In this document: one piece after another, positions 2,397 through 53,790 of the stretch
Layout: every line of letters starts with the position of its first letter
How positions within the stretch are numbered: position 1 is the first letter of the stretch
From: Patescibacteria group bacterium
Lineage (GTDB): Bacteria > Patescibacteriota > Minisyncoccia > Phycocordibacterales > JBBTRF01
DNA length: 64,000 nucleotides
Assembly: GCA_038065315.1 (NCBI GenBank)
Contig: JBBTRF010000001.1
Coordinates: forward strand, 230,413 to 294,412
Direction of reading: 5' to 3'
Position numbers and translations under genes: made by a program
Notes under the pieces: generated by a model
Told to the model about the DNA's origin: nothing
Database searches by the model: none
What the model saw: the letters and a program-made list of their open reading frames with translations, nothing else

Positions 2397-3054
2397 CTTG
2401 GTTTATATGATACTTTATTATGCTCAAATATGCATTTTTGGTCACAATAACATGATCAGTGAGATGAATATCAAGTATTTTGCCAGCATGAACAAGCTTC
2501 TTGGTCATTTCAATGTCTTCTCCGGAAGGCTGCGTGACTCCGGAGGGATGGTTGTGAGCCACGATAACACTCGCGGCACGTAAAGTGATGGCTGGTTCAA
2601 ATAATTCACGGGGGTGAGCAAGGCTTGCGTTGAGCGTACCAATCGAGATGACCTGTCTCTCTATTAGACAGTCCTGTGTGTCGAGATAGAAAGCGACGAA
2701 ATGTTCCTTTTTCGAATCTTTTATGTCCGAACAGAGTTTCCAGACATCAGTAGGAGATAGTACTTCCGTTTTCTGAACGGTAAAACGGTCCGTTAGTTCA
2801 AGGATGGATAAAACCTGAGCCGCCTTCGCCTTACCCAATCCCCTAATCGATAAAAGATGCTCGAGGCCAATCTTTTGCTTACCGATCTCGGAGATAAGCT
2901 CCAGTATCTTTTTTGAAAGCTGCAAGACATTCGAACCTTGGATACCGGAACCGAGAACTACAGCAAGAAGCTCTTGATCGGTGAGTCTTTTGACGCCATA
3001 CTTCTGCAATTTCTCACGAGGAAGGTCGACCTTTGGTAGTGACATCATTTTCAT
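2389..3054 (-). CDS. radC: RadC-like JAB/MPN domain protein (UPF0758)
   Basis: N-terminal HhH region (LTDQELLAVVLGSG), JAMM motif HNHPSG and downstream D. The gene overlaps the REase start by 8 nt. Confidence 0.8.
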   Translation of the reverse strand: MKMMSLPKVDLPREKLQKYGVKRLTDQELLAVVLGSGIQGSNVLQLSKKILELISEIGKQKIGLEHLLSIRGLGKAKAAQVLSILELTDRFTVQKTEVLSPTDVWKLCSDIKDSKKEHFVAFYLDTQDCLIERQVISIGTLNASLAHPRELFEPAITLRAASVIVAHNHPSGVTQPSGEDIEMTKKLVHAGKILDIHLTDHVIVTKNAYLSIIKYHINQDE

Positions 3055-3359
3055 ACGTTCAGAAAGTATGTCACTTCCGATACGAAAAAAGAAGCGAAAT
3101 CTTTATTAAGATTTTATCGATTTTTAAACAAGCCTTATTTTCTCTAGCTTTCCCGACAATCTTTTACTCGAAAAATAGCACTCCCGCATTGCGAAAACCC
3201 TCCACCCGAGTCGTCTCAGTGCCTGGATATTTCGTTTATCTCTCTTTATGTTCCTCTCGAACTTTTTCCTCCAAAATGCTTGGTTATGTTTAGGCAGCGG
3301 TAATTTAAACCTCGAACACGCATACCAGAAACAGCCATGGACGAAGACGACAATAACAG

Positions 3360-3587
3360 CTAACCATTCTCTAATTCGAATAGCTGGTCATCACTTAAAT
3401 CAAGTACCCCTCGACAATCCAAAAGTTGCATACGTAGCTCTTCTCGTTTAAGCAATTCTTCCGGGTCAATATGCTGAGGGGTCATCTTTTTCCCAGACAC
3501 ATAATTCCCAACTATAATTCTGGTTTTCTGGTCAAGTTCCAGGTACTCTTTATACAATTCCTCACAACGTGTTTTTTTGTCAGACAT
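3360..3587 (-). CDS. small hypothetical protein (75 aa), co-transcribed with the upstream HEPN-like gene
   Basis: ORF sits 4 nt downstream of the 3592..4254 gene on the same strand in an AT-rich island; no recognisable motif. Confidence 0.3.
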   Translation of the reverse strand: MSDKKTRCEELYKEYLELDQKTRIIVGNYVSGKKMTPQHIDPEELLKREELRMQLLDCRGVLDLSDDQLFELENG

Positions 3588-3591
3588 GTTT

Positions 3592-4254
3592 TTATATTTT
3601 CTCGGAAATATGTTCTATGGCATAGACGACAGCTCTGAACGTTTCAAGATTATCTCGCACTTCCTTTCTTGTTATTGGTCTAACCTTGCCGTGATGCTTA
3701 TTGCCATAGTATACATCATTTCTGTGAACAATTGAGTCTCGGCGTTCTGCCATAGTGGCAACTATCCCTCTAACATCCGCCCTTCTACCCTTCTTTTTCC
3801 TACCCGGCTTTATTGAAAGAAACTTATTAACCTGTTTCCAACCATCATTAATTTCCATCATTGAAAAGGCCATTTGAATTGACTCAGGTTTTTGAAAGGT
3901 AACAGAACCAAGAGACTCTTCTAAAAAATTTATCAATCTTTTGGTCGGATCTTTCTGAATAATCAGATTGGTCAATTCCTTGTAACCATCCTTATCTTTA
4001 AATTTACCCCTTATTCTTTCCACGCACCTTTCCGGAACTCGTTTTTTATGATGAATTATCTTGGTAATAATCTCGATGGTACGTTTATGGATATACGCAT
4101 CCAAAGCGGCGACGGTAAAAACAATTACGGCTCGAAGCAAATCAGCAGTCACCCCCTTGGAGGCAGGTCTTCCAATTGGAAACTTTTCCTCATGAAGCTT
4201 TAGCAGCTCTTCGGAACGCTGTATATTGAGAATGAAAAATTCAATAGCTCTCAT
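3592..4254 (-). CDS. HEPN-like domain protein (Abi/defence-associated), hypothetical
   Basis: Contains an Rx4H-type motif (ERRDSIVHRN) in a predicted helical region; basic 220-aa protein in the AT-rich island next to the R-M genes. Confidence 0.4.
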   Translation of the reverse strand: MRAIEFFILNIQRSEELLKLHEEKFPIGRPASKGVTADLLRAVIVFTVAALDAYIHKRTIEIITKIIHHKKRVPERCVERIRGKFKDKDGYKELTNLIIQKDPTKRLINFLEESLGSVTFQKPESIQMAFSMMEINDGWKQVNKFLSIKPGRKKKGRRADVRGIVATMAERRDSIVHRNDVYYGNKHHGKVRPITRKEVRDNLETFRAVVYAIEHISEKI

Positions 4255-6514: not shown

Positions 6515-6592
6515 TGAAAATGGATTATAACGTATTTTTCGAGGTTCGTAAATAAACCTGGCGCGATCGGCTGAGGTGCCGCGATATTTTTG

Positions 6593-6683
6593 AGTACCTA
6601 CGGATTTTTCATACTTTTTCATACAAAATATGAGAAAGTATGAAAAATCCGCACCTACTATTTTTCGCTGCGCCACCCCACCC
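6593..6683. repeat. Palindromic intergenic repeat element, copy A (~22-bp inverted arms AGTAGGTGCGGATTTTTCATAC / GTATGAAAAATCCGCACCTACT plus flanking box TTTTYCGCYGCRCCACCCC)
   Basis: Near-identical copies at 16564-16650, 40761-40838 and 48161-48250 (the last inverted). Copy A lies between the end of the 6790..7227 gene and the uvrB start. Confidence 0.75.
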
Positions 6684-12556: not shown

Positions 12557-13045
12557 CTAGACCAACACGAAGTAGAGGAAGAGTCCGAACATGAGCACGG
12601 CCAAACTACAATTCACCAACGCGCCCGTCGCTGAGCCGATGAGTCCGGCAGTAGCGGCTTTGAGGGCTGCTGCGTTACTTTTGCGTGCCACTACTTCTCC
12701 CGCAAAGATGCCGACGAACAAACCAACGATGCCCCCGAGTGGCGGAAAGGCGATGAGACCAACAATGAGTCCGAGGAATCCGAAAAGAATCGAGCGTCGA
12801 TCTGCCCCACCATATCGTGCGCCAAGTATGCCGGCGAAGTAATCGATGAAGAAAGATACGATGAGAATACCGCCAAGTACCGCAAGATTCTCCCAGGTGA
12901 TGTGTACGAAGCGATCGGAAATCGCAAAAAGCAATGCAATAAGAAACATGTACGAGATCGCCGGCAGAAACGGCACGAGCACTGCCGGAATACCCAGCGC
13001 CATGAATATCGCTGCAACCGCGAGAAGAATTGGGTGTTCAATCAT
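12557..13045 (-). CDS. DUF456-like integral membrane protein
   Basis: Four predicted TM helices and a Gly-rich C-terminal TM (GFLGLIVGLIAFPPLGGIVGLFVGIFAG). Confidence 0.5.
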   Translation of the reverse strand: MIEHPILLAVAAIFMALGIPAVLVPFLPAISYMFLIALLFAISDRFVHITWENLAVLGGILIVSFFIDYFAGILGARYGGADRRSILFGFLGLIVGLIAFPPLGGIVGLFVGIFAGEVVARKSNAAALKAATAGLIGSATGALVNCSLAVLMFGLFLYFVLV

Positions 13046-13932
13046 TTCTTCATTTTACCATAGCCGCTGCCGTATCCATATTCGTATTCATCCTCCTCGT
13101 CGATCTGGTCGTGCAATACGGCAACATCCTTCGCCAATGAGGCCGTCTCTGCATCTTCATCATCATACGGGTCAGAAGATGGCCCGGGAACAACAATAGA
13201 CACTTCGTCGAGCACGTCATACAGAATATTTGAGGGACAGGCTACGGGGATCCGATGAGACAAACACACGGGCTGGCTTCCCTGCACAAACACATCCAAC
13301 GCGCCCACGACGACACCAAGTATCTTGCAAGAATCGACGTCGATCAGCGGCGCGCCGCCATCGGCAAGCCAAGGTGCGCCGTCTATCTCGAGCAGTTCTG
13401 GCACGCCATTTTTGTCTTTCTGGACCGCACCGATCGAGCAAAGGTGTGTAAAGACTTTCGGCTGCCCTGCAGCGACTCGCTTCATATCAGCCTCATCCAC
13501 CCCATTCCGACACCTTGTTGCTGGGAAGCTGAGCGTAAACGCCTCCACCCCAGCGGTGAGACAGTCCTCGTTGGTTTCGAGATCATCCATCGAAAAGCCG
13601 ACTTCCTGGCGTTGCTCGAATCCAAATACAGCCAGCCCTCGTACGGTATCGGTGTCGATGAGCATGAGGTCGGCGGTCTGGTATACATCGACCCCGGCCT
13701 CGGTCTTTTGATACACTCCCGCAAAATACTGCCCGGCCGCCTTCTCCATCGCCTTGAAAACACTGAGTGACGTCACGGCAAACTGTCCGTCTACCGCAAA
13801 ACCAGTACCTTCGAAATGCACGGTTGATTGCTCAACCCCCATTTGTCTGGCACCGAGAAAGAGGAGGTTGCGACGAACTGAATCGATAATATGTTGTGTT
13901 GGCATGCGAATATGCTTATGAGTAATACCCAT
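13042..13932 (-). CDS. hypothetical protein with degenerate trypsin-like (S1) protease signature and an acidic C-terminal tail
   Basis: GTGFAV (His-region-like), TADLMLIDTD (Asp region) and ADGGAPL in place of GDSGGPL (Ser nucleophile replaced by Gly). The C-terminus is Asp/Glu/Tyr/Gly-rich. Confidence 0.35.
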   Translation of the reverse strand: MGITHKHIRMPTQHIIDSVRRNLLFLGARQMGVEQSTVHFEGTGFAVDGQFAVTSLSVFKAMEKAAGQYFAGVYQKTEAGVDVYQTADLMLIDTDTVRGLAVFGFEQRQEVGFSMDDLETNEDCLTAGVEAFTLSFPATRCRNGVDEADMKRVAAGQPKVFTHLCSIGAVQKDKNGVPELLEIDGAPWLADGGAPLIDVDSCKILGVVVGALDVFVQGSQPVCLSHRIPVACPSNILYDVLDEVSIVVPGPSSDPYDDEDAETASLAKDVAVLHDQIDEEDEYEYGYGSGYGKMKK

Positions 13933-13944
13933 AAGTAAAGCAAA

Positions 13945-14020
13945 CCAGTGATAGAGAAACTGCTAAAAAGTGTTCAAGAAAAGACTAATTTCCGATAAAG
14001 AAATCGTGAAAAAGTTCTAA
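13945..14020 (-). promoter_or_regulatory. Conserved upstream motif, copy 1 (shared with 36910-36979), immediately 5' of the 13042..13932 gene
   Basis: About 45 of ~50 nt are identical to the second copy: AAATTAGTMYTTTCTTGARYACTTTTTAGCARTTTCTCTATC (gene-sense strand), located about -25 to -70 from each ATG. It contains TTGAAC/TTGAGT-N18-TATC(A/G)-like promoter elements. Confidence 0.45.
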
Positions 14021-14072
14021 AGAAAAAATGAAGGAGAGGTAAAAACAAAATCAAGAATCGGGCGGACCATTT

Positions 14073-16422: not shown

Positions 16423-16563
16423 AAGTAACTCCAGGGATGTGATGTCGGTGTTCCGACTGGTTTTCAAACAACGCGAATGGAATAATTAAACCGCGACACG
16501 GTCACTTTGTCAAGAAAATATCCGGACGATGTGAACAAGTGGGTGGGTCCGCCGACTTTTTTG

Positions 16564-16650
16564 AGTAGGTGCGGATTTTTCATACAAATTCATACAAAGT
16601 ATGAAGAAGTATGAAAAATCCGCACCTACTGTTTTCCGCCGCACCACCCC
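16564..16650. repeat. Palindromic intergenic repeat element, copy B
   Basis: AGTAGGTGCGGATTTTTCATAC...GTATGAAAAATCCGCACCTACT plus the GTTTTCCGCCGCACCACCCC box; begins 13 nt after the stop of the 16664..17518 gene. Confidence 0.75.
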
Positions 16651-26817: not shown

Positions 26818-27603
26818 TCAAATAACCTGCACCTCCTTGCTACGTCCCAACTCCCTCTTGAAATGCTTCAGATACGCCACCAAGATGAAGCTGATAATGA
26901 CCATCAAAAACCAGGATGTTATTTTGCCGGTGGACACCATGTTCCACACATGGACTTGGTCGGGATATTGCCAGGCGCCGAGGTAGGTGGAGATATTCTC
27001 GGCTATCCAGATGAAAAAAGCGACGAGGAGGAAGCCGACATTCATGTGCATCCAGCGCACTTTTGTGGCGACGGTGAAATACACACGCGTCTTCCAGAAA
27101 AAAGCGAACACCACGGCGATCAGAAAGTAGCGGAAATCGTAGATGTAGTGATTGGTGAAAAAGTTGAGATAGATGAGGAGGCAAAGCACGGCGCTCGCAG
27201 CATAGTGCTCGTAGTTGGTCAGGTGCAATTTCATAATCTTCCACGATTGGCTGATGTAGCTGCCCACTGCCGCATACATGAAGCCGCTGTAGAGTGGCAC
27301 AGTCGCGATCTTGAAGAATGCCGCCTCGGGATAGCTCCAGGAGCCGATCCCCGGACTAGTTTTGTACAGCTCGAGAACGAGGCCGATGATGTGAAAGAGG
27401 AAGATAACCTTCACCTCGTCCTTGGTCTCGAGTTTGGTGAAATAGAGGATGGCTTGGATCAGCACCGCAGCAACAAAGAGAAAATCGTATCGCGCAATGC
27501 CGAAAAGCGGAATGTGGTTGGACAGAAAAAGCAACAGAAAGAACGAACCCGCAAAGACGCAGGCGCGGGCTTGTTTGAGGCCGAAGAGGAGGAATTCGTG
27601 CAT
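26818..27603 (-). CDS. Integral membrane protein (DUF817-like), hypothetical
   Basis: Eight predicted TM helices, aromatic-rich. Confidence 0.45.
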   Translation of the reverse strand: MHEFLLFGLKQARACVFAGSFFLLLFLSNHIPLFGIARYDFLFVAAVLIQAILYFTKLETKDEVKVIFLFHIIGLVLELYKTSPGIGSWSYPEAAFFKIATVPLYSGFMYAAVGSYISQSWKIMKLHLTNYEHYAASAVLCLLIYLNFFTNHYIYDFRYFLIAVVFAFFWKTRVYFTVATKVRWMHMNVGFLLVAFFIWIAENISTYLGAWQYPDQVHVWNMVSTGKITSWFLMVIISFILVAYLKHFKRELGRSKEVQVI

Positions 27604-27624
27604 ATGCCTAGCTTCTATAAAAAT

Positions 27625-28533
27625 CTATTTAAGTAACCACTTAACAACTCTTTCCGCCATTAACTGCTCTCTTCCAAAATAACTATGGGATGCGCCCTCG
27701 ATAATATCAATTTCAAAATTTGGAGCATTTATTGCTTTATTTTTTATGAGTTCCAGAGCCTCTTGTTGAGGAAGGATGGCCGCATCGTCTTTTTCGCCCA
27801 AAAAAGCTAGAGTTGGAACTTTTATTTCCGCGATTAAGGAGGGCTTAGTTTTGTCATATGTATTAAAAATATCAACCGGCTTGTCTCGGGTATTCAAATC
27901 TACATATGTATATGCAGATAAATAATAGTAATCCCAAATTTTGACAGGCAATAATTCTCCACCCTTCCCACCCAAAATCATCTTCTCAGCCTGAGAAAGT
28001 AGGTCCTTGTGATTACTTTCCTTTTCTGCCAAACCAACCATGTCTGGTGGGGACATTAAAATTAATTTTTTAATTCTTTGATCCTGCGTTTTGGCTGCGT
28101 AATACACAACCTTCACGGCCCCTAAACTATGTCCACACAGGGTTATTTCTTCATATCCACTTTTCTGGAGATAATCAACTGCAGATTTAATATCAAATAT
28201 GCATTCCTCAAATTTTTCGTATGCATTTCCAATTCTTCGATATTTTTCTTCTGAACCCGGAATTGGGAAATCGGCAACGATGTCATGACCTCGGGTATTT
28301 ATACTTAAAAAAGTCTGCTGTGCCTGTGTAATGTGCTCGGCCATGACATCAATGAATCTATTCTCATAGAAGTTACCGCCCATGCCATGTATATGCAAGA
28401 AAGCTTTTCGGCTCAATACATCTGGACTATAAACCAAACCTTGCAGAATCAACTGATCTTCAGTTGTAAATCTTATAAATTCTGTTTTCATGACTTTATT
28501 ATAGCAAACCAAATCATCCATTCCGTATTCCAA
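27625..28533 (-). CDS. Alpha/beta hydrolase family protein
   Basis: Nucleophile elbow GHSLGA and an HGMGGN oxyanion region. The gene is strongly AT-rich (~30-35% GC) against ~58% flanks, suggesting single-gene horizontal acquisition. Confidence 0.7.
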   Translation of the reverse strand: MEYGMDDLVCYNKVMKTEFIRFTTEDQLILQGLVYSPDVLSRKAFLHIHGMGGNFYENRFIDVMAEHITQAQQTFLSINTRGHDIVADFPIPGSEEKYRRIGNAYEKFEECIFDIKSAVDYLQKSGYEEITLCGHSLGAVKVVYYAAKTQDQRIKKLILMSPPDMVGLAEKESNHKDLLSQAEKMILGGKGGELLPVKIWDYYYLSAYTYVDLNTRDKPVDIFNTYDKTKPSLIAEIKVPTLAFLGEKDDAAILPQQEALELIKNKAINAPNFEIDIIEGASHSYFGREQLMAERVVKWLLK

Positions 28534-36242: not shown

Positions 36243-36527
36243 ATGCTTTCTACGCCATTACTGTAACCCGAAGAACGCTTCGACACAAGTTGCAGATTTT
36301 TATATCTTTAGTATTATTTACTCGTGCCTGTGGGCGAAAGCCCCTACTCAGCTACGGGATTCCCTAAGCCGATAGCAGGCATAACAAAACTACCGCCTTT
36401 GGGCGGTGTTTTTGTTTTTGGCGTTATTCGTCTTCTATGCCTTCGGTAAAGATTTTCTGTTTTCCATTTTTCATCTTTGAATAAAGCATTACGCTCCAAA
36501 AGGTAATATTTCCGTCACCGACCCTCC

Positions 36528-36893
36528 TCAGAATCGTCTTAACGCGTGTCTTTTTTCACCGATAATAGCGACCATTCCCCAATACTCAATTTCCTTCATC
36601 GGAATAGCGCCGTCAGTGGCGGATTTTTTCCCAATTGGTGACAGAACTTTTCGATACTCTTGAATAGTGCCAGACTTTTCGATAATTTCCAGACCAAGAG
36701 GAAGGAGGCTGAATTTAAACAACTGTTCTTTTTGCTCCCTAGGCATTCGGCCGGAAAACTGCAAATGAGAAAAGCCATCGGAGTTTAGTATGACCTTTGT
36801 TTTAAAATACGGACTATATATTTCCCTTCTCGCAAGATATATTTCTCTTGCCCTATGTCTTCTTTCATTAAAATAGATTGGATTGATCTCCAT
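36528..36893 (-). CDS. hypothetical protein (AT-rich)
   Basis: 121-aa ORF at ~33% GC, preceded by conserved upstream motif copy 2. Confidence 0.4.
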   Translation of the reverse strand: MEINPIYFNERRHRAREIYLARREIYSPYFKTKVILNSDGFSHLQFSGRMPREQKEQLFKFSLLPLGLEIIEKSGTIQEYRKVLSPIGKKSATDGAIPMKEIEYWGMVAIIGEKRHALRRF

Positions 36894-36909
36894 ACCGTAC
36901 AGTATAGAA

Positions 36910-36979
36910 GATGACCGATAGAGAAATTGCTAAAAAGTACTCAAGAAAGTACTAATTTTTGTTAAAGAAAATCTAAAAT
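36910..36979 (-). promoter_or_regulatory. Conserved upstream motif, copy 2 (see 13945-14020)
   Basis: GATAGAGAAATTGCTAAAAAGTACTCAAGAAAGTACTAATTT, near-identical to copy 1, immediately 5' of the 36528..36893 gene. Confidence 0.45.
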
Positions 36980-38143
36980 CTACTTCTTCTCACCACCTTC
37001 CCCCACCAACCGCAAAACCGCAAGCTCCAACGGCAACTGAGGAATCGGCGAGCTGCCCGTCTGCTCAAGTGCAGTGAGCAATTCGAGCACAACCTTTGAA
37101 TTAATTTTTGCACCCGCCGCATCCCCCGCGCACTTCTTCAAAAACGCGAACTCTGCTTCGGAAAATTGCTCCTTTGCAATCTTCTCCATCTCTGCAGACA
37201 TACGCATGAGCAAAATGAAGCGGACCTTCTGCAGCACGAGCGTCACAAACACGCGCATGTCTACGCCATGTTCCTGCATCTGTCGAATCACCGCCAGCGC
37301 TTTTTCAGCACCACCCGCCGACCCCTCGCCGAGACCGAGAATGAAATCTTGCACCAGCTTCGCACGCGGCGCGGAAGTAACACGCTCCACGTCTTCGAGC
37401 GTTACGGATTTTTCTCCCACCGCCCCCAACACTTTCTGCAGCACACCAAGCGTGTCGCGATACGAACTGTCGCCAAGCAGGGCAATGAGCTCCGCCGCTT
37501 CCGCAGCCACCTTGAACCCTTCAGCCTTCGACACGCGCAGCACACTCTCCTTGAGCAACTCCGTCCCCGGCTTCTTGAACACAAAGGTCTGACAACGCGA
37601 CACCACCGTCTGCGGGAGCTTTTCCGAATCCGTCGTCGCCAAAATAAACACAACATGCGCCGGCGGCTCCTCGAGCGTCTTCAGGAGCGCATTGAAGGCC
37701 TCCTTGGTGAGCATGTGCACCTCGTCGATAATGTACACCTTGTATGGCGACTCAAAAGGCAACGTGTTCACCGCCTCACGAAGCTCACGCACGTCGTCGA
37801 TGCCACGATTCGATGCCGCGTCGATCTCGTAGAGGTCGTTGGCCGAGGTGCCGATGGTTTGTGCGAAAATGCGCGCCACCGAGGTCTTGCCCGTGCCACG
37901 TGAGCCGGAGAAGAGGTAGGCGTGGGAGATGTTCGGGCGGGCGCCGGACGAAGCGCCGGCCTTCCCAGCCGCGCCAATCGCCCCCTCCAGCGCCTTTACC
38001 ACCTGCTCCTGCCCGAGCACGTCGGCAAAGCTCGCCGGGCGGTATTTGCGGTACAAAGCGCTGTGGGAAGCGATGCGCGTGGTCGCGATCGCAGCATTGG
38101 CCGCTTTCTGGCCATCTTTCTTCGTCTTTTCCTCGGCTTTCAT
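36980..38143 (-). CDS. dnaX: DNA polymerase III subunit gamma/tau (DnaX), short form
   Basis: Walker A GSRGTGKTS, DEVHML (Walker B) and SRC (sensor) motifs; 387 aa. Confidence 0.85.
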   Translation of the reverse strand: MKAEEKTKKDGQKAANAAIATTRIASHSALYRKYRPASFADVLGQEQVVKALEGAIGAAGKAGASSGARPNISHAYLFSGSRGTGKTSVARIFAQTIGTSANDLYEIDAASNRGIDDVRELREAVNTLPFESPYKVYIIDEVHMLTKEAFNALLKTLEEPPAHVVFILATTDSEKLPQTVVSRCQTFVFKKPGTELLKESVLRVSKAEGFKVAAEAAELIALLGDSSYRDTLGVLQKVLGAVGEKSVTLEDVERVTSAPRAKLVQDFILGLGEGSAGGAEKALAVIRQMQEHGVDMRVFVTLVLQKVRFILLMRMSAEMEKIAKEQFSEAEFAFLKKCAGDAAGAKINSKVVLELLTALEQTGSSPIPQLPLELAVLRLVGEGGEKK

Positions 38144-40222: not shown

Positions 40223-40760
40223 TTGCTTACAAAATAAAAAATATGAAAAGAAAGAGACCCAGCCAGCGAATGCACTCGCCAACTGGGTCCACCAACCAAA
40301 CCGCGCGGAAACAACAATCGCGCGAACCATCACCGACAACCGACCCCATACGACCCCACCGTCCCGAGAAGACGGCCTGGCGTAGAGCGACAAGGACACA
40401 TCACCTGATGTCGGCATTACACCGAACCGGTACGGAACCGGCAGCCCTTGAGATAATTGATCACCCCTTTCTCACTGCCCCTCGAAGGCAGTTTCGTGTT
40501 CAAGGTTGAGGAAACCTGAACCGTGACCGCTCCGGCCATCTGGTGGCGTAGCGCTCCGGTCCCCGTTGCGTTTACTGGTGTGGCGATTCCACATGTGTCG
40601 CTTGGTTTTCCTTCCGTCTTGTATCTATCGATCTTTTTTGAGCCGGTCGAGCTCGATCGACTGAGTTGTTGTGACCTCTGGCCGCTTATTATTGTATACC
40701 TCCTCTCAGAAAAAGTGAAGCCGCGAATCGGCAAGGGCGGCTACCTGTCAACACTTTTTA

Positions 40761-40838
40761 GGTGGTGCGGATTTTTCATACAAAAGTATGAGAAAAGTAT
40801 GACGAATCCGCACCTACTCTTTTTCTCGTCGCCACCCC
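40761..40838. repeat. Palindromic intergenic repeat element, copy C
   Basis: GGTGGTGCGGATTTTTCATAC...GTATGACGAATCCGCACCTACT plus CTTTTTCTCGTCGCCACCCC. It starts at the nucleotide after the dus stop and is followed (minus strand) by a separate GC hairpin with a T-tract at 40700-40745. Confidence 0.75.
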
Positions 40839-47167: not shown

Positions 47168-48133
47168 ATGGAACACAAAAATCCGGAAAAATACCCGATT
47201 CGCCAACTTTCAGTCGACCAACTGCCCCGCCAGCTCGCAGAGATTACCGGCCGACCAAAGCGACTCTATAGTAGAGGGGACGAGAGCCTACTGCATAGGT
47301 ACGTCGAAGGCGCCGCGAACACCGCGGGAGGAAATCGGGGTCGCGGCCACAAGCTACTCTGCGTCATTGGCTCCCGGCAATACACGCCATACGGCCGCGA
47401 AGCCTGCGAAGCGATCATCGCAGGACTTCGCGACTACCCCATCACTATAGTATCCGGCCTGGCGCTCGGTATCGACGGCATCGCTCACGAAGCCGCCCTC
47501 AGAGCTGGATTAAAAACCGTCGCAGTGCTTGGTTCAGGACTGGACGACAACTCCATCTATCCCCCTTCCAACCAGCACATCGCCCGCCGTATTCTGGCCG
47601 AAGGCGGCTGTCTCGTCTCGGAAAATCCGCCCGGTACTCGCCCAGCACCGTATCACTTCCCGGCTCGCAACCGCATCATGTCTGGCCTGTCGCACGCGAC
47701 ACTGGTGATTGAAGCAAGGCGCCCCAGCGGCACCCTCATCACCAGCCAGCTTGCCACCGACCAAAACCGCGACATCCTCGCCGTCCCAGGCTCGATTTTT
47801 TCCGAGCACGCGGCCGGCCCGCACTATCTCATTGGCAAGGGCGCCACACCAGTGACCTGTGCACACGATGTGCTGGTGGCGCTGGGGTTTGCGGTCGAGA
47901 AGATACGCGGCAGAGGCAAAGCGAATGGCACAAAAAATCATACTCTCACAGCAAAACTCGCTGACCTCACCATCGCGGAAAAAATGTTGCTCGGAATCCT
48001 CGACCGACCAAGGACACGCGACGAGATCATTCGCGAGCTTGGCTGGAGCGCTTCGGAGACCAACGTCACGCTGTCGCTGCTCGAAATAAAGGAACTGATC
48101 GTCGCCGGTTTCAACGAAATTCGCAAAAAATGA
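47168..48133 (+). CDS. dprA: DNA processing protein DprA (Smf)
   Basis: Rossmann-like DprA core IGSRQYTPYGREA...IVSGLALGIDGIAHEAAL; C-terminal winged-helix-like region. Confidence 0.85.
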   Translation: MEHKNPEKYPIRQLSVDQLPRQLAEITGRPKRLYSRGDESLLHRYVEGAANTAGGNRGRGHKLLCVIGSRQYTPYGREACEAIIAGLRDYPITIVSGLALGIDGIAHEAALRAGLKTVAVLGSGLDDNSIYPPSNQHIARRILAEGGCLVSENPPGTRPAPYHFPARNRIMSGLSHATLVIEARRPSGTLITSQLATDQNRDILAVPGSIFSEHAAGPHYLIGKGATPVTCAHDVLVALGFAVEKIRGRGKANGTKNHTLTAKLADLTIAEKMLLGILDRPRTRDEIIRELGWSASETNVTLSLLEIKELIVAGFNEIRKK

Positions 48134-48160: not shown

Positions 48161-48250
48161 GGGGCGGTGGCGGAGCAAAAAAGTGCCTACGGATTTGTCA
48201 TACGAAAGTATGAGGAAAGTATGAAAAATCCGAGGGTACTCGAAAACGCT
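48161..48250. repeat. Palindromic intergenic repeat element, copy D (inverted orientation)
   Basis: GGGGCGGTGGCGG box then AGTGCCTACGGATTTGTCATAC...GTATGAAAAATCCGAGGGTACT; starts 28 nt after the dprA stop. The box orientation matches the other copies relative to the upstream gene. Confidence 0.7.
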
Positions 48251-48257
48251 GGCGGGG

Positions 48258-48539
48258 CTAGTCGCGATATTCCCAACGATTATTCAACTTGTTGATAGTC
48301 TTACCAGAGAATACCTTTGTCATACCGAGCGGAGTAATCTTCTTTTTATACGGACTCTTAGATAGCACCCTGGATACAGTTGCCTTATGTACGTAGGGCA
48401 TTGATTTATGATTTCTGAGTAACTTGAAGAAATGAATCTGATCAATCGTCAGCTCAGCATTATCGCCGCATTGTGAGGTTCTTACTGCTTTGTTGAGAGC
48501 GGCGGCAACTAGGTCTGCTGTTTTGTTGATTGTTGTCAT
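48258..48539 (-). CDS. small hypothetical protein, weak HU/IHF-like resemblance (AT-rich)
   Basis: 93 aa; the N-terminus MTTINKTADLVAAAL resembles the HU N-terminus. Sits between repeat copy D and tRNA-Arg. Confidence 0.3.
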   Translation of the reverse strand: MTTINKTADLVAAALNKAVRTSQCGDNAELTIDQIHFFKLLRNHKSMPYVHKATVSRVLSKSPYKKKITPLGMTKVFSGKTINKLNNRWEYRD

Positions 48540-50626: not shown

Positions 50627-51328
50627 CTAGAAAACCATTTCCGGGTCCTCCTGGGTGATCAGCTCATAGGGAATAATCTCGTCCGGCCGGCAGATAGCAT
50701 ATGGAAGTTGGTTGTGAGTGAAATTCACAATTTCGCCCGTTTTTTTATCTTTCCATTTCTTACCGATCTCTTTCATGAGCTTCACCTCATCGATAGAGAG
50801 GTCGTTGATCTTTTCATTGGTATTGCTCTCCGATTCGCTGATCAAAAACATTTCTTTGCCGTTGTCGGTCTTTCTTTCCACGACGATCTTCCCTGCCTCT
50901 TCGAGCTCATCGATAGCACGGAAAAAAGTGTCTGGTACCGGACCGTATTCAATCCTTCGATACTGCATGCCGCTCATACTTTGCGAATGATCGTAGTACC
51001 AAGCGAAATCAGCGAGATAGAGCAGCTTGGCGAGCTTTGTCTTAGGAATTTTATTGTCGGCCTTGCTGGTAAGATTCATTCTCAAGTAGGTCAAGATCAT
51101 GTGCTTGTACTTGGCAATGTTCGCGATGTTGCCCGACAGAAGCTCGTCGACAGTGATCCCGAGCATCGAGGCTAGCTTTTGTGCTTCTTCTGCGCTCAAT
51201 GTTTGCTTGCCAGACTCAATAGCCGTATAGGTAGGCCGCGACACGCCAATAGCCTTCGCCATCTGCTCTTGCGAAAGATTATTCTTGAGGCGAAACTCCT
51301 TCACCTTTTGCATATACTTGTTGCTCAT
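50627..51328 (-). CDS. HTH(XRE)-Panacea (DUF4065/SocA-like) antitoxin-type protein
   Basis: N-terminal XRE HTH (LSQEQMAKAIGVSRPTYTAIESGKQ); C-terminal KLAKLLYLADFAWYYDHSQSMSGMQYRRIEYGPVPD matches the Panacea/DUF4065 hallmark. Confidence 0.6.
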   Translation of the reverse strand: MSNKYMQKVKEFRLKNNLSQEQMAKAIGVSRPTYTAIESGKQTLSAEEAQKLASMLGITVDELLSGNIANIAKYKHMILTYLRMNLTSKADNKIPKTKLAKLLYLADFAWYYDHSQSMSGMQYRRIEYGPVPDTFFRAIDELEEAGKIVVERKTDNGKEMFLISESESNTNEKINDLSIDEVKLMKEIGKKWKDKKTGEIVNFTHNQLPYAICRPDEIIPYELITQEDPEMVF

Positions 51329-51432
51329 GCATCAAGTATATGCAATGGATGTAAAGAAGTCAAGCAGGTTTGGTGGGTTATTTTACAAGTCTGATACGAA
51401 GAATGCAGTAACGTGATAAAACCGCTCTATAA

Positions 51433-53439
51433 TTATTCTTTTATGACACAAACAACCACACCTTGCACCCCAACCTCTTCATTACTCGTAAACTTCAATG
51501 GTTTGTGTTTTGAATTACTCGATCGAGGTTTTAAGACCACAACACCGCCCTCACGACGATATTCTTTTATAGTTGCATCATCTCCAATAAGTGCCACCAC
51601 ATTGTTCCCCTCTTCTGGATGATAATTTTTTCGACACAGAACTAAATCTCCATCATTAATTCCGACTTGATTCATTGAGTCACCAGAAGTTCTCAAAACG
51701 AAATACTTTGAACCTTTAGACATTAGCTCACTTTTAACAGGAATCATTTCTTGTACGGTAGAATCAGCAAACATAAGCTCTCCGCATCCAACAGAATCAA
51801 ACAAAGGAACGTTTATAAAGCCACTAACATATGGAGATTCTATTGATGTATTATTATCTTTTAGTACTCCTTCACCTGCACTCAAGCTAACATGCTCTTT
51901 AAAGTAATCTCTTAAATTATCGTCAGTAATATAAACGTACGTACCGAGGATTCCTCTTGTTAGCAACGTTTTATAAATATTAATAACATATCTTTTTAAC
52001 TCCTCTGGATCATCTACTCCTCTATGTCCATTTGAATCTAGGTACTTAGTTTTATCGACTACGATCTTTTTACTGATCGGATCATAAGACATTTCAGGGC
52101 CAATTATAACTCCAGCGTAGTTTAGATCGTATCCTTGAATTGTATGGATGCAACCCACTTCATTGATGGCATTAGGAGAATTCACCCAGTCGTGAATTTT
52201 ACTATTCCAAAATAACTTAATATCTCCTATAACAATATCTGGCACTTTTACATCATTTCTTGATACCCACTTCCATGCGTACCCTGCCACTAAGCGAGAC
52301 AGGGTGTGAATTTTTTCTTGTTTTTTGATATCAATTACCATTTGCCCCAGATCACTGTAAACTTTAAAATCATATTCCGAAAAATCAGCTCTCGTGCTCA
52401 CCTTACTTTCCATTAAGTGATCGATGAAATCAAGGTATTCTCGTCCTCCTCTTACACGCATCTGTGTCTTAAGTTCAAAACTTATTGGATTGGATTCTAA
52501 AACCTTCCGCATCGAAATATCAGAAGGCCTCACAGATTGTCTTTCGTCATAAAAGAGTACGACGTGGCTCGCTGATTTTAGTATCCAATCGAGTTCTGTC
52601 CCCTCATTCCCCAAGCCAAAACTTTTATTGGTTGTATCAAATGTCCCGTAGTTTGGAATATTCCTTCTTTGATGTAGACGATGTGTTTCATCGACGATCA
52701 AAATGTCGTATTTCTGATTCGCGACCTCGTTTGGACCAATTACCATGTTTGGACTTAGGCCTGGAATACTTCTAAATACTTTCTTTAGCGTCTTTCTTAA
52801 AGAAACCATAGCAATTACCAGCGCAATGTCTTTTCTACCTTCCTGAACCAACTGCTTAACTAAGTAAGTAGCTAAAATAGTCTTGCCAGTACCTGGCCCG
52901 CCATGAATAATATAGGACTGTCTCTTATCCCCTCTAAAATATTCTAGTAGCTTTGAAGCAATCAAGTATTGATCGTCTGTGAGAGTTTTATATGGAGAAT
53001 ACTTAAAAAGATCGCTATTGCGAATTTGCAGCAGGTCATTCCTTGCAATCTTTAATTCTTGTAGTTTTTTCCACAATAACTCAAACTTCCCTCGATATCG
53101 TTCACGGTCAAAATAATCATGATTTTGCAAACCTCCGTTTCCGTTCTGAAGAATATACTTACCGTCGGCCACCAAATACTCAATCAATGAAGATTCCGTG
53201 TCGAGAGTCGCTGATTTATTAAATTCGTCGTCAGAAATAACGTGAATGGTCTTTAATTGCTTCCGGGCCCCATTCTCTAAATGCTGCTTCGTTCTAGCAT
53301 AAGCTCTAATTGTTTCTCCAACATAGAGTTCTTTTCCGTTTTCTATTAGATAAACAACTGGCCAATCACTACCGTACTTATAGTTACGTATTTTCTCTAC
53401 GCCAGATGAACTGAATGGAAATTTTACTATTTCTGACAT
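51433..53439 (-). CDS. Three-domain fusion: N-terminal GIY-YIG nuclease + P-loop ATPase (DUF2075-like) + C-terminal LexA/UmuD-like S24 peptidase domain
   Basis: GIY-YIG: VVYLIENGKELYVGETIRAYARTKQH with downstream conserved E (DTESSLIEY) and N (QNGNGG). ATPase: Walker A HGGPGTGKT, Walker B ILIVDETHRL, VLFYDERQ. S24: GDSMNQVGINDGDLVLC...VVALIGDDATIKEYRREGGVVVLKPRSSN (Ser nucleophile in GDSM, Lys in TIKEY; compare LexA GDSM...TVKRL). Confidence 0.7.
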   Translation of the reverse strand: MSEIVKFPFSSSGVEKIRNYKYGSDWPVVYLIENGKELYVGETIRAYARTKQHLENGARKQLKTIHVISDDEFNKSATLDTESSLIEYLVADGKYILQNGNGGLQNHDYFDRERYRGKFELLWKKLQELKIARNDLLQIRNSDLFKYSPYKTLTDDQYLIASKLLEYFRGDKRQSYIIHGGPGTGKTILATYLVKQLVQEGRKDIALVIAMVSLRKTLKKVFRSIPGLSPNMVIGPNEVANQKYDILIVDETHRLHQRRNIPNYGTFDTTNKSFGLGNEGTELDWILKSASHVVLFYDERQSVRPSDISMRKVLESNPISFELKTQMRVRGGREYLDFIDHLMESKVSTRADFSEYDFKVYSDLGQMVIDIKKQEKIHTLSRLVAGYAWKWVSRNDVKVPDIVIGDIKLFWNSKIHDWVNSPNAINEVGCIHTIQGYDLNYAGVIIGPEMSYDPISKKIVVDKTKYLDSNGHRGVDDPEELKRYVINIYKTLLTRGILGTYVYITDDNLRDYFKEHVSLSAGEGVLKDNNTSIESPYVSGFINVPLFDSVGCGELMFADSTVQEMIPVKSELMSKGSKYFVLRTSGDSMNQVGINDGDLVLCRKNYHPEEGNNVVALIGDDATIKEYRREGGVVVLKPRSSNSKHKPLKFTSNEEVGVQGVVVCVIKE

Positions 53440-53442
53440 ATT

Positions 53443-53790
53443 CTAAAGTTTATTATACTTAGTATGTTTTCCTTTAGCTTTCTCAACCGGATATTTTTCT
53501 TCATTAACTCTAATTTTCTTTTCAAGTGCATTTAGTACATCGATATTTAAATCGTGACTCATGAGTAGAACCCAGTACAAAACGTCTGCCAATTCTTCTC
53601 CTATAGCGACTTTGTTTTCTTTTACATATTTTTCCATCTCTTCCTTATTTTTCCACTGAAAATGTTCCATTACTTCACCAGCCTCCAAAACAAGAGAAAG
53701 GGCGACATCTTTAGGATTGTGGAATTGCTTCCAATCTCTTGCGTCACGAAAAGCAATTATTCTCTTTGTTAGATCGATAATGTTTTTCAT
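53443..53790 (-). CDS. MazG-like nucleotide pyrophosphohydrolase (all-alpha NTP-PPase)
   Basis: LVLEAGEVMEHFQW...IGEELADVLYWVLLMSHDLNIDV: EExxE/D metal-binding helices of the MazG/HisE fold. Start refined to MKNIIDL (ATG at 53790); 3-nt gap to the downstream gene. Confidence 0.55.
   Translation of the reverse strand: MKNIIDLTKRIIAFRDARDWKQFHNPKDVALSLVLEAGEVMEHFQWKNKEEMEKYVKENKVAIGEELADVLYWVLLMSHDLNIDVLNALEKKIRVNEEKYPVEKAKGKHTKYNKL

Follow-up and report, generated by a model that had tools for sequence, protein, structure and literature searches.

The window analysed here, a 64-kb stretch of contig JBBTRF010000001.1 from a Patescibacteria group bacterium, carries two unrelated minus-strand genes, here called genes A and B, with a shared repeat element in the intergenic DNA upstream of each. 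The sequence of the window is represented in Hainich groundwater 0.1-µm-filter metagenomes and in the metagenome-assembled genome (MAG) GCA_964355935.1, and homologues of its proteins were labelled Patescibacteria, Paceibacterota or Parcubacteria by their sources. The features of the two loci are listed below.

13042..13905, minus strand: gene A from its probable start (annotated 13042-13932, 296 aa), lineage-restricted, with a weak degenerate trypsin-like signature
13934-13939, minus strand: predicted -10 hexamer of promoter A, TTTACT, after TGc (extended -10) and 10 nt downstream of ...TATC
13950..14025, minus strand: repeat array of locus A, seven half-sites at 11-bp phase; proposed response-regulator operator
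36424..36893, minus strand: gene B; its 121-aa open reading frame (ORF), 36528-36893, covers only the N-terminal portion of a 156-aa protein conserved in the candidate phyla radiation (CPR)
36901-36906, minus strand: predicted -10 hexamer of promoter B, TATACT; 10 nt separate it from the preceding ...TATC and 7 nt from the following ATG at 36893
36917..36970, minus strand: repeat array of locus B, five half-sites at 11-bp phase

The original prediction had described a ~50-nt sequence common to the two genes, and such a sequence is indeed present at both places, with a consensus string that was correctly given. Its 32-nt core, GATAGAGAAAYTGCTAAAAAGTRYTCAAGAAA, lies at 13950-13981 (locus A) and 36917-36948 (locus B) of the plus strand, with 29 of the 32 positions identical. 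When up to three mismatches were allowed, this core was matched twice in the window, compared with 0.00 matches expected from 100 dinucleotide shuffles. Since the core lies on the plus strand, both copies are read on the minus strand (as ...TTTCTTGARYACTTTTTAGCARTTTCTCTATC), which is the sense strand of genes A and B. The element proved longer than had been noted: an ungapped repeat of 79 nt (13925-14003 versus 36892-36970) is 76% identical between the loci, and a relaxed scan revealed an additional degenerate tandem copy at locus A (13994-14025, 6 mismatches in 32, 44-nt period). No further weaker copies could be identified in the window by either an nhmmer profile or regular expressions. Each copy is located between the stop codon of the upstream gene (14073 and 36980, respectively) and the start of the downstream gene. 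The flanks of the two copies are unrelated to one another, so they do not belong to a larger duplicated segment. Nor does the element fall inside coding sequence when start codons are revised, as the revised start of gene A (13905) moves farther away from it.

Divided into 11-nt frames, the motif proved to be an array of 11-bp-phased direct repeats with the consensus TTTCTTnAnnn. The half-sites of the two loci, with their start positions on the minus strand, are as follows.

Locus A, starting at 14025, 14014, 14003, 13992, 13981, 13970 and 13959: TTTCTTTAGAA / CTTTTTCACGA / TTTCTTTATCG / GAAATTAGTCT / TTTCTTGAACA / CTTTTTAGCAG / TTTCTCTATC
Locus B, starting at 36970, 36959, 36948, 36937 and 36926: TTTCTTTAACA / AAAATTAGTAC / TTTCTTGAGTA / CTTTTTAGCAA / TTTCTCTATC

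In the lineage of the window, half-sites of the form TTTCT(T/C)(T/G)A(T/A)C alternate with wwwwTTAGCnn, and the consensus in 11-nt frames reads tTTCTTTATCa / aAAATTAGnnn / TTTCTTgAncn / cTTTyTTAGCAg / TTTCTCTATC. Within the window, TTTCT is repeated at spacings of 22 and 44 nt. The internal core TTTTTAGCA that had been singled out before does exist, but it is only one half-site of this array. Overall the array is T-rich (48% T), and at locus B it starts 10 nt past the dnaX stop codon (36980-36982). The same phasing was found in relatives. The gene-A orthologue of MAG GCA_964602975.1 (L135) has ~11 consecutive TTTCTTnAnnn units in the same position, with TTCTT-type words at nine exact steps (eight of 11 nt and one of 22), and the units of L130 and L133, TTTCTTTATC and TTTTATC, likewise follow in 11-nt steps. 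The number of half-sites ranges from 4 to 11 (4 in L133, 5 at locus B, 7 at locus A and ~11 in L135), yet in every case 9-10 nt separate the proximal edge from the -10 hexamer. A potential hairpin (AGTAC/GTACT) in copy B was not retained in other copies.

It had been proposed that TTGA-N18-TATC within the motif represents a -35/-10 pair. However, a consensus scan found no sigma-70 -35/-10 pair at locus A or B, and other promoters of the window have TTGACA-like -35 boxes. Instead, a TAnnnT-like hexamer is located exactly 10 nt downstream of TATC in all 15 proximal instances of the motif known from the window and its relatives; it is an exact TAnnnT in 11 of these 15, compared with 1 of 43 chance matches to the same search pattern, and the four others are TTTACT (twice), AATACT and CATACT. 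A start codon follows 6-7 nt past the hexamer at locus B as well as in L010, L072, L082, L038 and L044. Because TAnnnT stands 10 nt past TATC and is then followed by a start codon, the conserved block itself is placed upstream of the core promoter, at a predicted position of ~-24 to -77 or beyond, and TTTACT (13934-13939) and TATACT (36901-36906) are the predicted -10 boxes of A and B. The two copies had also been thought to lie at the same distance from the ATG. In fact, ...TATC is separated from the annotated ATG by 17 nt at A and 23 nt at B, whereas the distance to the -10-like hexamer, 10 nt, is identical.

The position of the -10 box of B, 7 nt before the ATG at 36893, implies that the mRNA of gene B is leaderless. 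Such mRNAs appear to be common in this genome and seem to be the rule: a TAnnnT hexamer 5-9 nt before the ATG was observed in 16 of the 38 ATG genes of the window (for example, dnaX at 36980-38143, dprA at 47168-48133 and the gene at 50627-51328), and a Shine-Dalgarno-like site in one of the 38. On the other hand, the array occurs at only two promoters of the window and is lacking from its tRNA promoters. Thus, it marks a specific promoter class and not a general signal.

To assess conservation, we compared the window with the MAG ELA631, in which the motif block is identical at 86 of 98 positions, versus 38-53% identity at fourfold degenerate sites of the two flanking genes; the remaining spacer could not be aligned. 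The proximal 22 nt are very strongly conserved, and so are positions outside the search pattern, namely cTTTATCaaAAaTTAG and the -10 box. By this measure the block appears to be conserved far above neutral. A strict scan with a 24-base pattern against GTDB representative genomes, which do not include the window's own genome, returned one locus only, the syntenic orthologue of locus A in ELA631 (L006). A 21-base degenerate pattern was used for metagenome contigs and identified 87 loci; these were mostly chance matches, but a dozen independent loci share features absent from the pattern, that is, the upstream cTTTATCaaAAaTTAG block and the TAnnnT-like hexamer exactly 10 nt past ...TATC. In total, 13 further instances with the same geometry were found in related CPR metagenome contigs and MAGs; the wider search thus yielded many more copies than the two in the window. 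None of the other instances was syntenic with dnaX. A scan of viral contigs with TTNTTAGCANTTTCTCTATC, which served as a negative control, gave 31 matches, none of which had the flanking architecture; they resemble chance matches in AT-rich phage DNA.

A profile search of the fetched loci pointed to a candidate regulator. In L036, a second copy of the array is located immediately 3' of a gene for an OmpR-family response regulator and precedes a 36-aa ORF and a histidine-kinase gene. The regulator has an OmpR-type winged-helix domain (PF00486) and not a LytTR domain. Thousands of homologues could be found, the nearest of which all come from Parcubacteria/Paceibacterota-type MAGs (55-83% identity), and the recognition helix DPFSNT[VIL]E[STA]H[VI]xNLRKK is almost invariant among these regulators. 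We compared eight orthologous regulator loci; L098 and L132 have a convergent next gene, and the other six (L036, L094, L096, L130, L133 and L134) are testable, that is, they have same-strand DNA downstream of the regulator. In all six, an array with a -10 hexamer directly follows the regulator stop codon. These arrays are T-rich and 11-bp-phased and end 9-10 nt before TATACT, TATGAT or CATACT. Four of the six loci continue with a 35-37-aa ORF ending in EF(T/S/A)PWD and then with a kinase of about six membrane helices.

Further evidence comes from the half-sites themselves. One MAG, GCA_964602975.1, contains the regulator (L094) together with the gene-A orthologue (L135). It has three arrays, namely those next to the regulator, at the small RNA and at gene A, and the proximal half-site is TTTCTTGATC in each of them; in the window, L036 and ELA631, by comparison, every array has TTTCTCTATC there. 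The proximal half-site thus changes in concert within one genome, as expected of sites read by one protein. A comparable arrangement was observed outside CPR in L085 (622-4125; human-gut contig PVML01017158.1, a Firmicute), where three 11-bp TTTCT repeats, within a 32-mer identical to that of the CPR loci L072 and L073, are preceded by an OmpR-family regulator gene and followed by genes for a lantibiotic-protection-type ABC ATPase, an ABC-2 permease and a short histidine kinase. This suggests that TTTCT-type half-sites may be used by related regulators outside CPR. It should be noted that the Firmicute regulator is only ~33% identical to the CPR regulator, and the locus is therefore taken as an analogy and not as proof.

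On the basis of these results, we consider it probable, though by no means certain, that the array serves as operator for a conserved response regulator of the OmpR/PhoB family and that this regulator works as a class-II activator in place of the -35 element. In such a mechanism, molecules of the phosphorylated regulator would line up head-to-tail over the array, all on one helix face, and the promoter-proximal molecule would contact sigma-A/RNA polymerase in place of the -35 contact, so that polymerase would be recruited to a promoter with only a -10 element, often an extended one (TGn). Transcription would start ~7 nt past the -10 box, so that the mRNA of gene B would have no leader and that of gene A a leader of ~20-28 nt. 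The two genes would then share one regulon, which in relatives would also include the regulator's own small-peptide/histidine-kinase operon, ComEC, ComM, MazF-like toxins, a Phd antitoxin and a tRNA-like small RNA. Binding of the regulator to the array, activation rather than repression, and the transcription start sites are inferred. The earlier idea of a shared promoter or operator and of co-regulation by one factor is retained here, since the element is conserved above neutral, fixed relative to the -10 box and present before many genes; its proposed anatomy was wrong, and its sigma-factor option has become less likely.

Several observations weigh against the proposed operator. No response-regulator gene was detected by tblastn in the 64-kb window, and the regulator is known from the sister MAG, not from the window's own genome. 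The array reaches ~-24 and may continue into the spacer as TTTGC; it is thus closer to the -10 box than in classical pho-box promoters, a position that would also suit a repressor. The -10 box of gene A, TTTACT, is without the usual A at position 2. A distant orthologue of gene B (L137) has no array, from which it follows that regulon membership of gene B is lineage-specific. Adjacency to the regulator gene could also mean that the peptide/kinase operon belongs to the regulon of another factor. In addition, the search pattern behind most instances was itself built from the motif, which makes conservation at the 21 positions of that pattern partly circular.

The alternative which best survives, although we regard it as unlikely, is that a different protein coats one face of the DNA (another transcription factor family or a nucleoid-associated protein), or that the same regulator works as a repressor, without class-II activation in either case. 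The close approach of the array to the -10 box just described, at a position also used by repressors, fits such a view, as do the missing regulator gene in the window and the heterogeneity of the downstream genes. But promoters without any -35 element are expected to need an activator, and head-to-tail 11-bp repeats lie directly 3' of the OmpR-family gene in every testable locus.

An alternative-sigma promoter, as had originally been suggested, in which the block or part of it (TTAGCA or TTTCTC) forms an unusual -35 element, appears clearly less probable. The very strong conservation of the proximal 22 nt and the resemblance of TTAGCA to TTGACA speak for it. However, the -10 box is the ordinary TAnnnT of other leaderless genes, TTAGCA is located 21 nt from it, and conservation reaches to -77 and beyond with 4-11 repeats, which is unlike the way sigma factors read DNA. 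The sigma factor is the less likely of the two options originally offered, since the repeat count is variable but the promoter-proximal end keeps its place. None of the consensus sequences for sigma-54 (TGGCAC-N5-TTGC), sigma-28, extracytoplasmic function (ECF) sigma factors or the Bacteroidetes -33/-7 promoter fitted when compared by eye.

Slightly more doubtful still is a factor-independent upstream element, in which phased T-tracts would yield curved DNA or an UP-element and thereby a strong constitutive promoter. Although the T content, the 11-bp phase and the location upstream of promoters without a -35 would suit such an element, TTTCTT is no canonical A-tract, and non-T positions (C4, TATC/GAAC and TTAGCA) are conserved as well. 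The concerted change of the proximal half-site within one genome, and the restriction of the array to two sites in 64 kb, with tRNA and other promoters lacking it, also argue against this possibility. Jointly, these three alternatives retain a substantial minority of the probability. Finally, an origin as a mobile-element remnant, a recent segmental duplication or a structured RNA or leader with no promoter role, as might be suspected from two near-identical copies in a genome that has another dispersed repeat family, is essentially excluded by the unrelated flanks, the lack of terminal inverted repeats, the fixed orientation and -10 distance, the retention of the array at orthologous positions across species with saturated synonymous sites, and the absence of a fold (mean minimum free energy -3.7 kcal/mol, z ~0, both strands); Rfam gave no match at the gathering threshold and only noise (E>2) at a relaxed threshold.

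As a kind of element, a response-regulator box promoter is textbook knowledge, and the proposed operator can be compared with known systems. The pho box stands in for the -35 element and ends ~10 bp before the -10. PHO boxes consist of 11-nt direct repeats, often multiple, which are bound head-to-tail with a contact to sigma-70 (PMC4415409). The arrays resemble PhoB-dependent promoters in their 11-nt direct repeats, in the several tandem units at 22-bp phase, in the replaced -35 and in an edge ~10 bp from the -10. However, their half-site is TTTCTTnAnnn and not CTGTCAT, and the downstream genes are not pst, pho or ugp; a Pho regulon proper was rejected because neither CTGTCAT-N4-CTGTCAT nor phosphate-acquisition genes were found at the arrays. 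Moreover, the regulator scored 187 bits against the NCBIfam PhoB model, below its 296-bit cut-off, and the kinase, with its membrane domain of six helices, is not built like PhoR.

Promoters controlled by NisRK contain a TCT-N8-TCT repeat which overlaps a non-canonical -35 (PMC9958725). Similar to PnisA and PnisF of NisR/SpaR systems, TTTCT half-sites give TCT-N8-TCT in several variants of the array; a three-part module of peptide gene, kinase and regulator with a regulated promoter before the peptide gene is also shared, and the identical 32-mer beside a lantibiotic-type ABC/two-component locus in the gut Firmicute is a further likeness. On the other hand, lantibiotic biosynthesis genes are lacking, the 35-37-aa peptides (EF[TSA]PWD C-terminus) have no Cys/Ser/Thr-rich core, the array is longer (5-11 half-sites), and the regulon includes ComEC, ComM and toxins.

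Sites of ComE/AgrA are direct repeats of 21-22-bp period upstream of promoters with a weak or absent -35. A LytTR-type site of this kind was considered because of the 22-bp period and dropped once the 11-bp period and the OmpR-type regulator emerged. ComCDE and AgrBDCA are similar in having a small peptide gene, a polytopic kinase and a regulator, direct repeats before the peptide/kinase operon and competence genes in the regulon. They differ in that the regulator here has an OmpR-type winged helix instead of LytTR, the repeats are spaced at 11 bp and the array directly borders the -10 region; in addition, no genes for peptide processing or GG-leader export were seen, except for two ABC exporters in L133.

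The genes and RNAs located downstream of arrays are diverse.

MazF/PemK-like toxins: L010, L072
Phd/YefM antitoxin: L020
ComM/YifB: L082, L038
ComEC: L044
Secreted or membrane protein: L042
Proteins without an assigned function: gene A and gene B of the window, L073
Peptide/kinase operon: regulator-adjacent arrays
tRNA-like RNA of ~100 nt: L036 (6449-6555), L094 (~3252-3350), L019 (minus strand, just downstream of the array)

Two DNA-uptake genes among about a dozen targets are more than we would expect by chance, in a sample that is small and pattern-selected. Homology of gene B to the array-driven 152-aa gene of L073 was considered on account of a short C-terminal resemblance and rejected, as BLASTP found nothing. 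The peptide/kinase operon and its regulator form a conserved module in Paceibacteria-like CPR genomes, in the order OmpR-type regulator, array promoter, 35-37-aa EF(T/S/A)PWD ORF and histidine kinase of about six helices.

L036, 7573-9904: module
L096, 710-3098: module
L130, 4001-6527: module
L133, 4001-8672: module, followed by two ABC exporters

The modules of L036, L094 and L096 have a 5' leader with a conserved hairpin, the 3' side of which is GTCGAAC. The small RNA begins with a 5' hairpin with the conserved loop ATTGGTRA, followed by a cloverleaf-like body without an encoded CCA; this body comprises an acceptor stem of 7 bp in which the G3:U70 pair is invariant, an arm of 9 bp whose 9-nt loop contains TTACCA, and a T-arm. 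Compensatory changes were observed in 12 of its 29 predicted pairs (three sequences). It was missed by ARAGORN and by the Rfam tRNA model, and its sole Rfam signal was 16.9 bits to the two ends of the tmRNA model.

Both window genes appear to be misannotated, gene A by a wrong start and gene B by a broken frame. Gene A probably begins at its second ATG (M10, at 13905), 27 nt inside the annotated start: M10 does not vary in the family, five of its ten sequences start at this residue, and L135 lacks the first ATG. The window and ELA631 agree in all of the first 45 nt past the annotated ATG, although synonymous sites elsewhere are saturated between them. The earlier description of gene A as degenerate trypsin-like fits, in that its GDSGG-like stretch reads EGGAP and two of the family, which comprises ten sequences only, have a weak Trypsin_2 match. 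Gene A itself has no Pfam match above threshold and none in NCBIfam, PADLOC or PDB sequences, and its AlphaFold model is unusable (pLDDT, the predicted local distance difference test score, 34). Gene B had been described as an AT-rich gene of 121 aa. Its frame is broken in an A6 run (36551-36556), and one added A restores a 156-aa frame which stops at 36424-36426, ahead of a terminator at 36392-36407. More than 500 homologues of the restored protein were found, nearly all of which have a length of exactly 156 aa, at 63-92% identity; its fold is predicted with confidence (pLDDT 86) and has no significant solved relative.

Two other features of the window were observed. A second dispersed repeat family, unrelated to the array, occurs at 6575-6679, 16546-16650, 40755-40838 and 48216-48260; it is a near-perfect palindrome (AGTAGGTGCGGATTTTTCATAC ... 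GTATGAAAAATCCGCACCTACT) with arms of ~32 nt and a loop of 3-5 nt, and is probably what the original prediction had listed as its first motif. AT-rich islands at 3000-4200, 27600-28500 and 51300-53700 (35-40% GC versus ~52% for the window) may have been horizontally acquired, and one of them encodes a HEPN/RiboL-PSP protein (3592-4254).

The layout of the module looks like that of a peptide autoinduction loop. We tentatively raise a broader possibility, to which we assign a rather low probability: a Paceibacteria-wide autoinduction module of EF(T/S/A)PWD peptide, six-helix kinase and OmpR-type regulator, with the arrays as its read-out, might switch on ComEC, ComM, RNase-toxin-like genes and the tRNA-like small RNA, and the window genes would be members of its regulon. 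Full-text searches for CPR/Patescibacteria returned nothing about promoter motifs, leaderless transcription or two-component regulons, and no account of cis-element-level gene regulation; neither the motif nor the regulon nor the peptide/kinase/regulator module appeared in the searchable literature, and the module is also missing from a survey of CPR quorum-sensing genes. For annotation, our results indicate that start codons and promoters in these genomes should be called on the assumption of leaderless mRNAs. They also offer a first testable CPR regulatory circuit that includes a high-information operator, a signal-peptide candidate and a candidate regulator from the P0001/P0002 family. Among its targets is the machinery for DNA uptake, which such auxotrophic, host-dependent cells are believed to depend on, and the autoinduction model, if true, would mean quorum-sensing-like control of competence in CPR bacteria.
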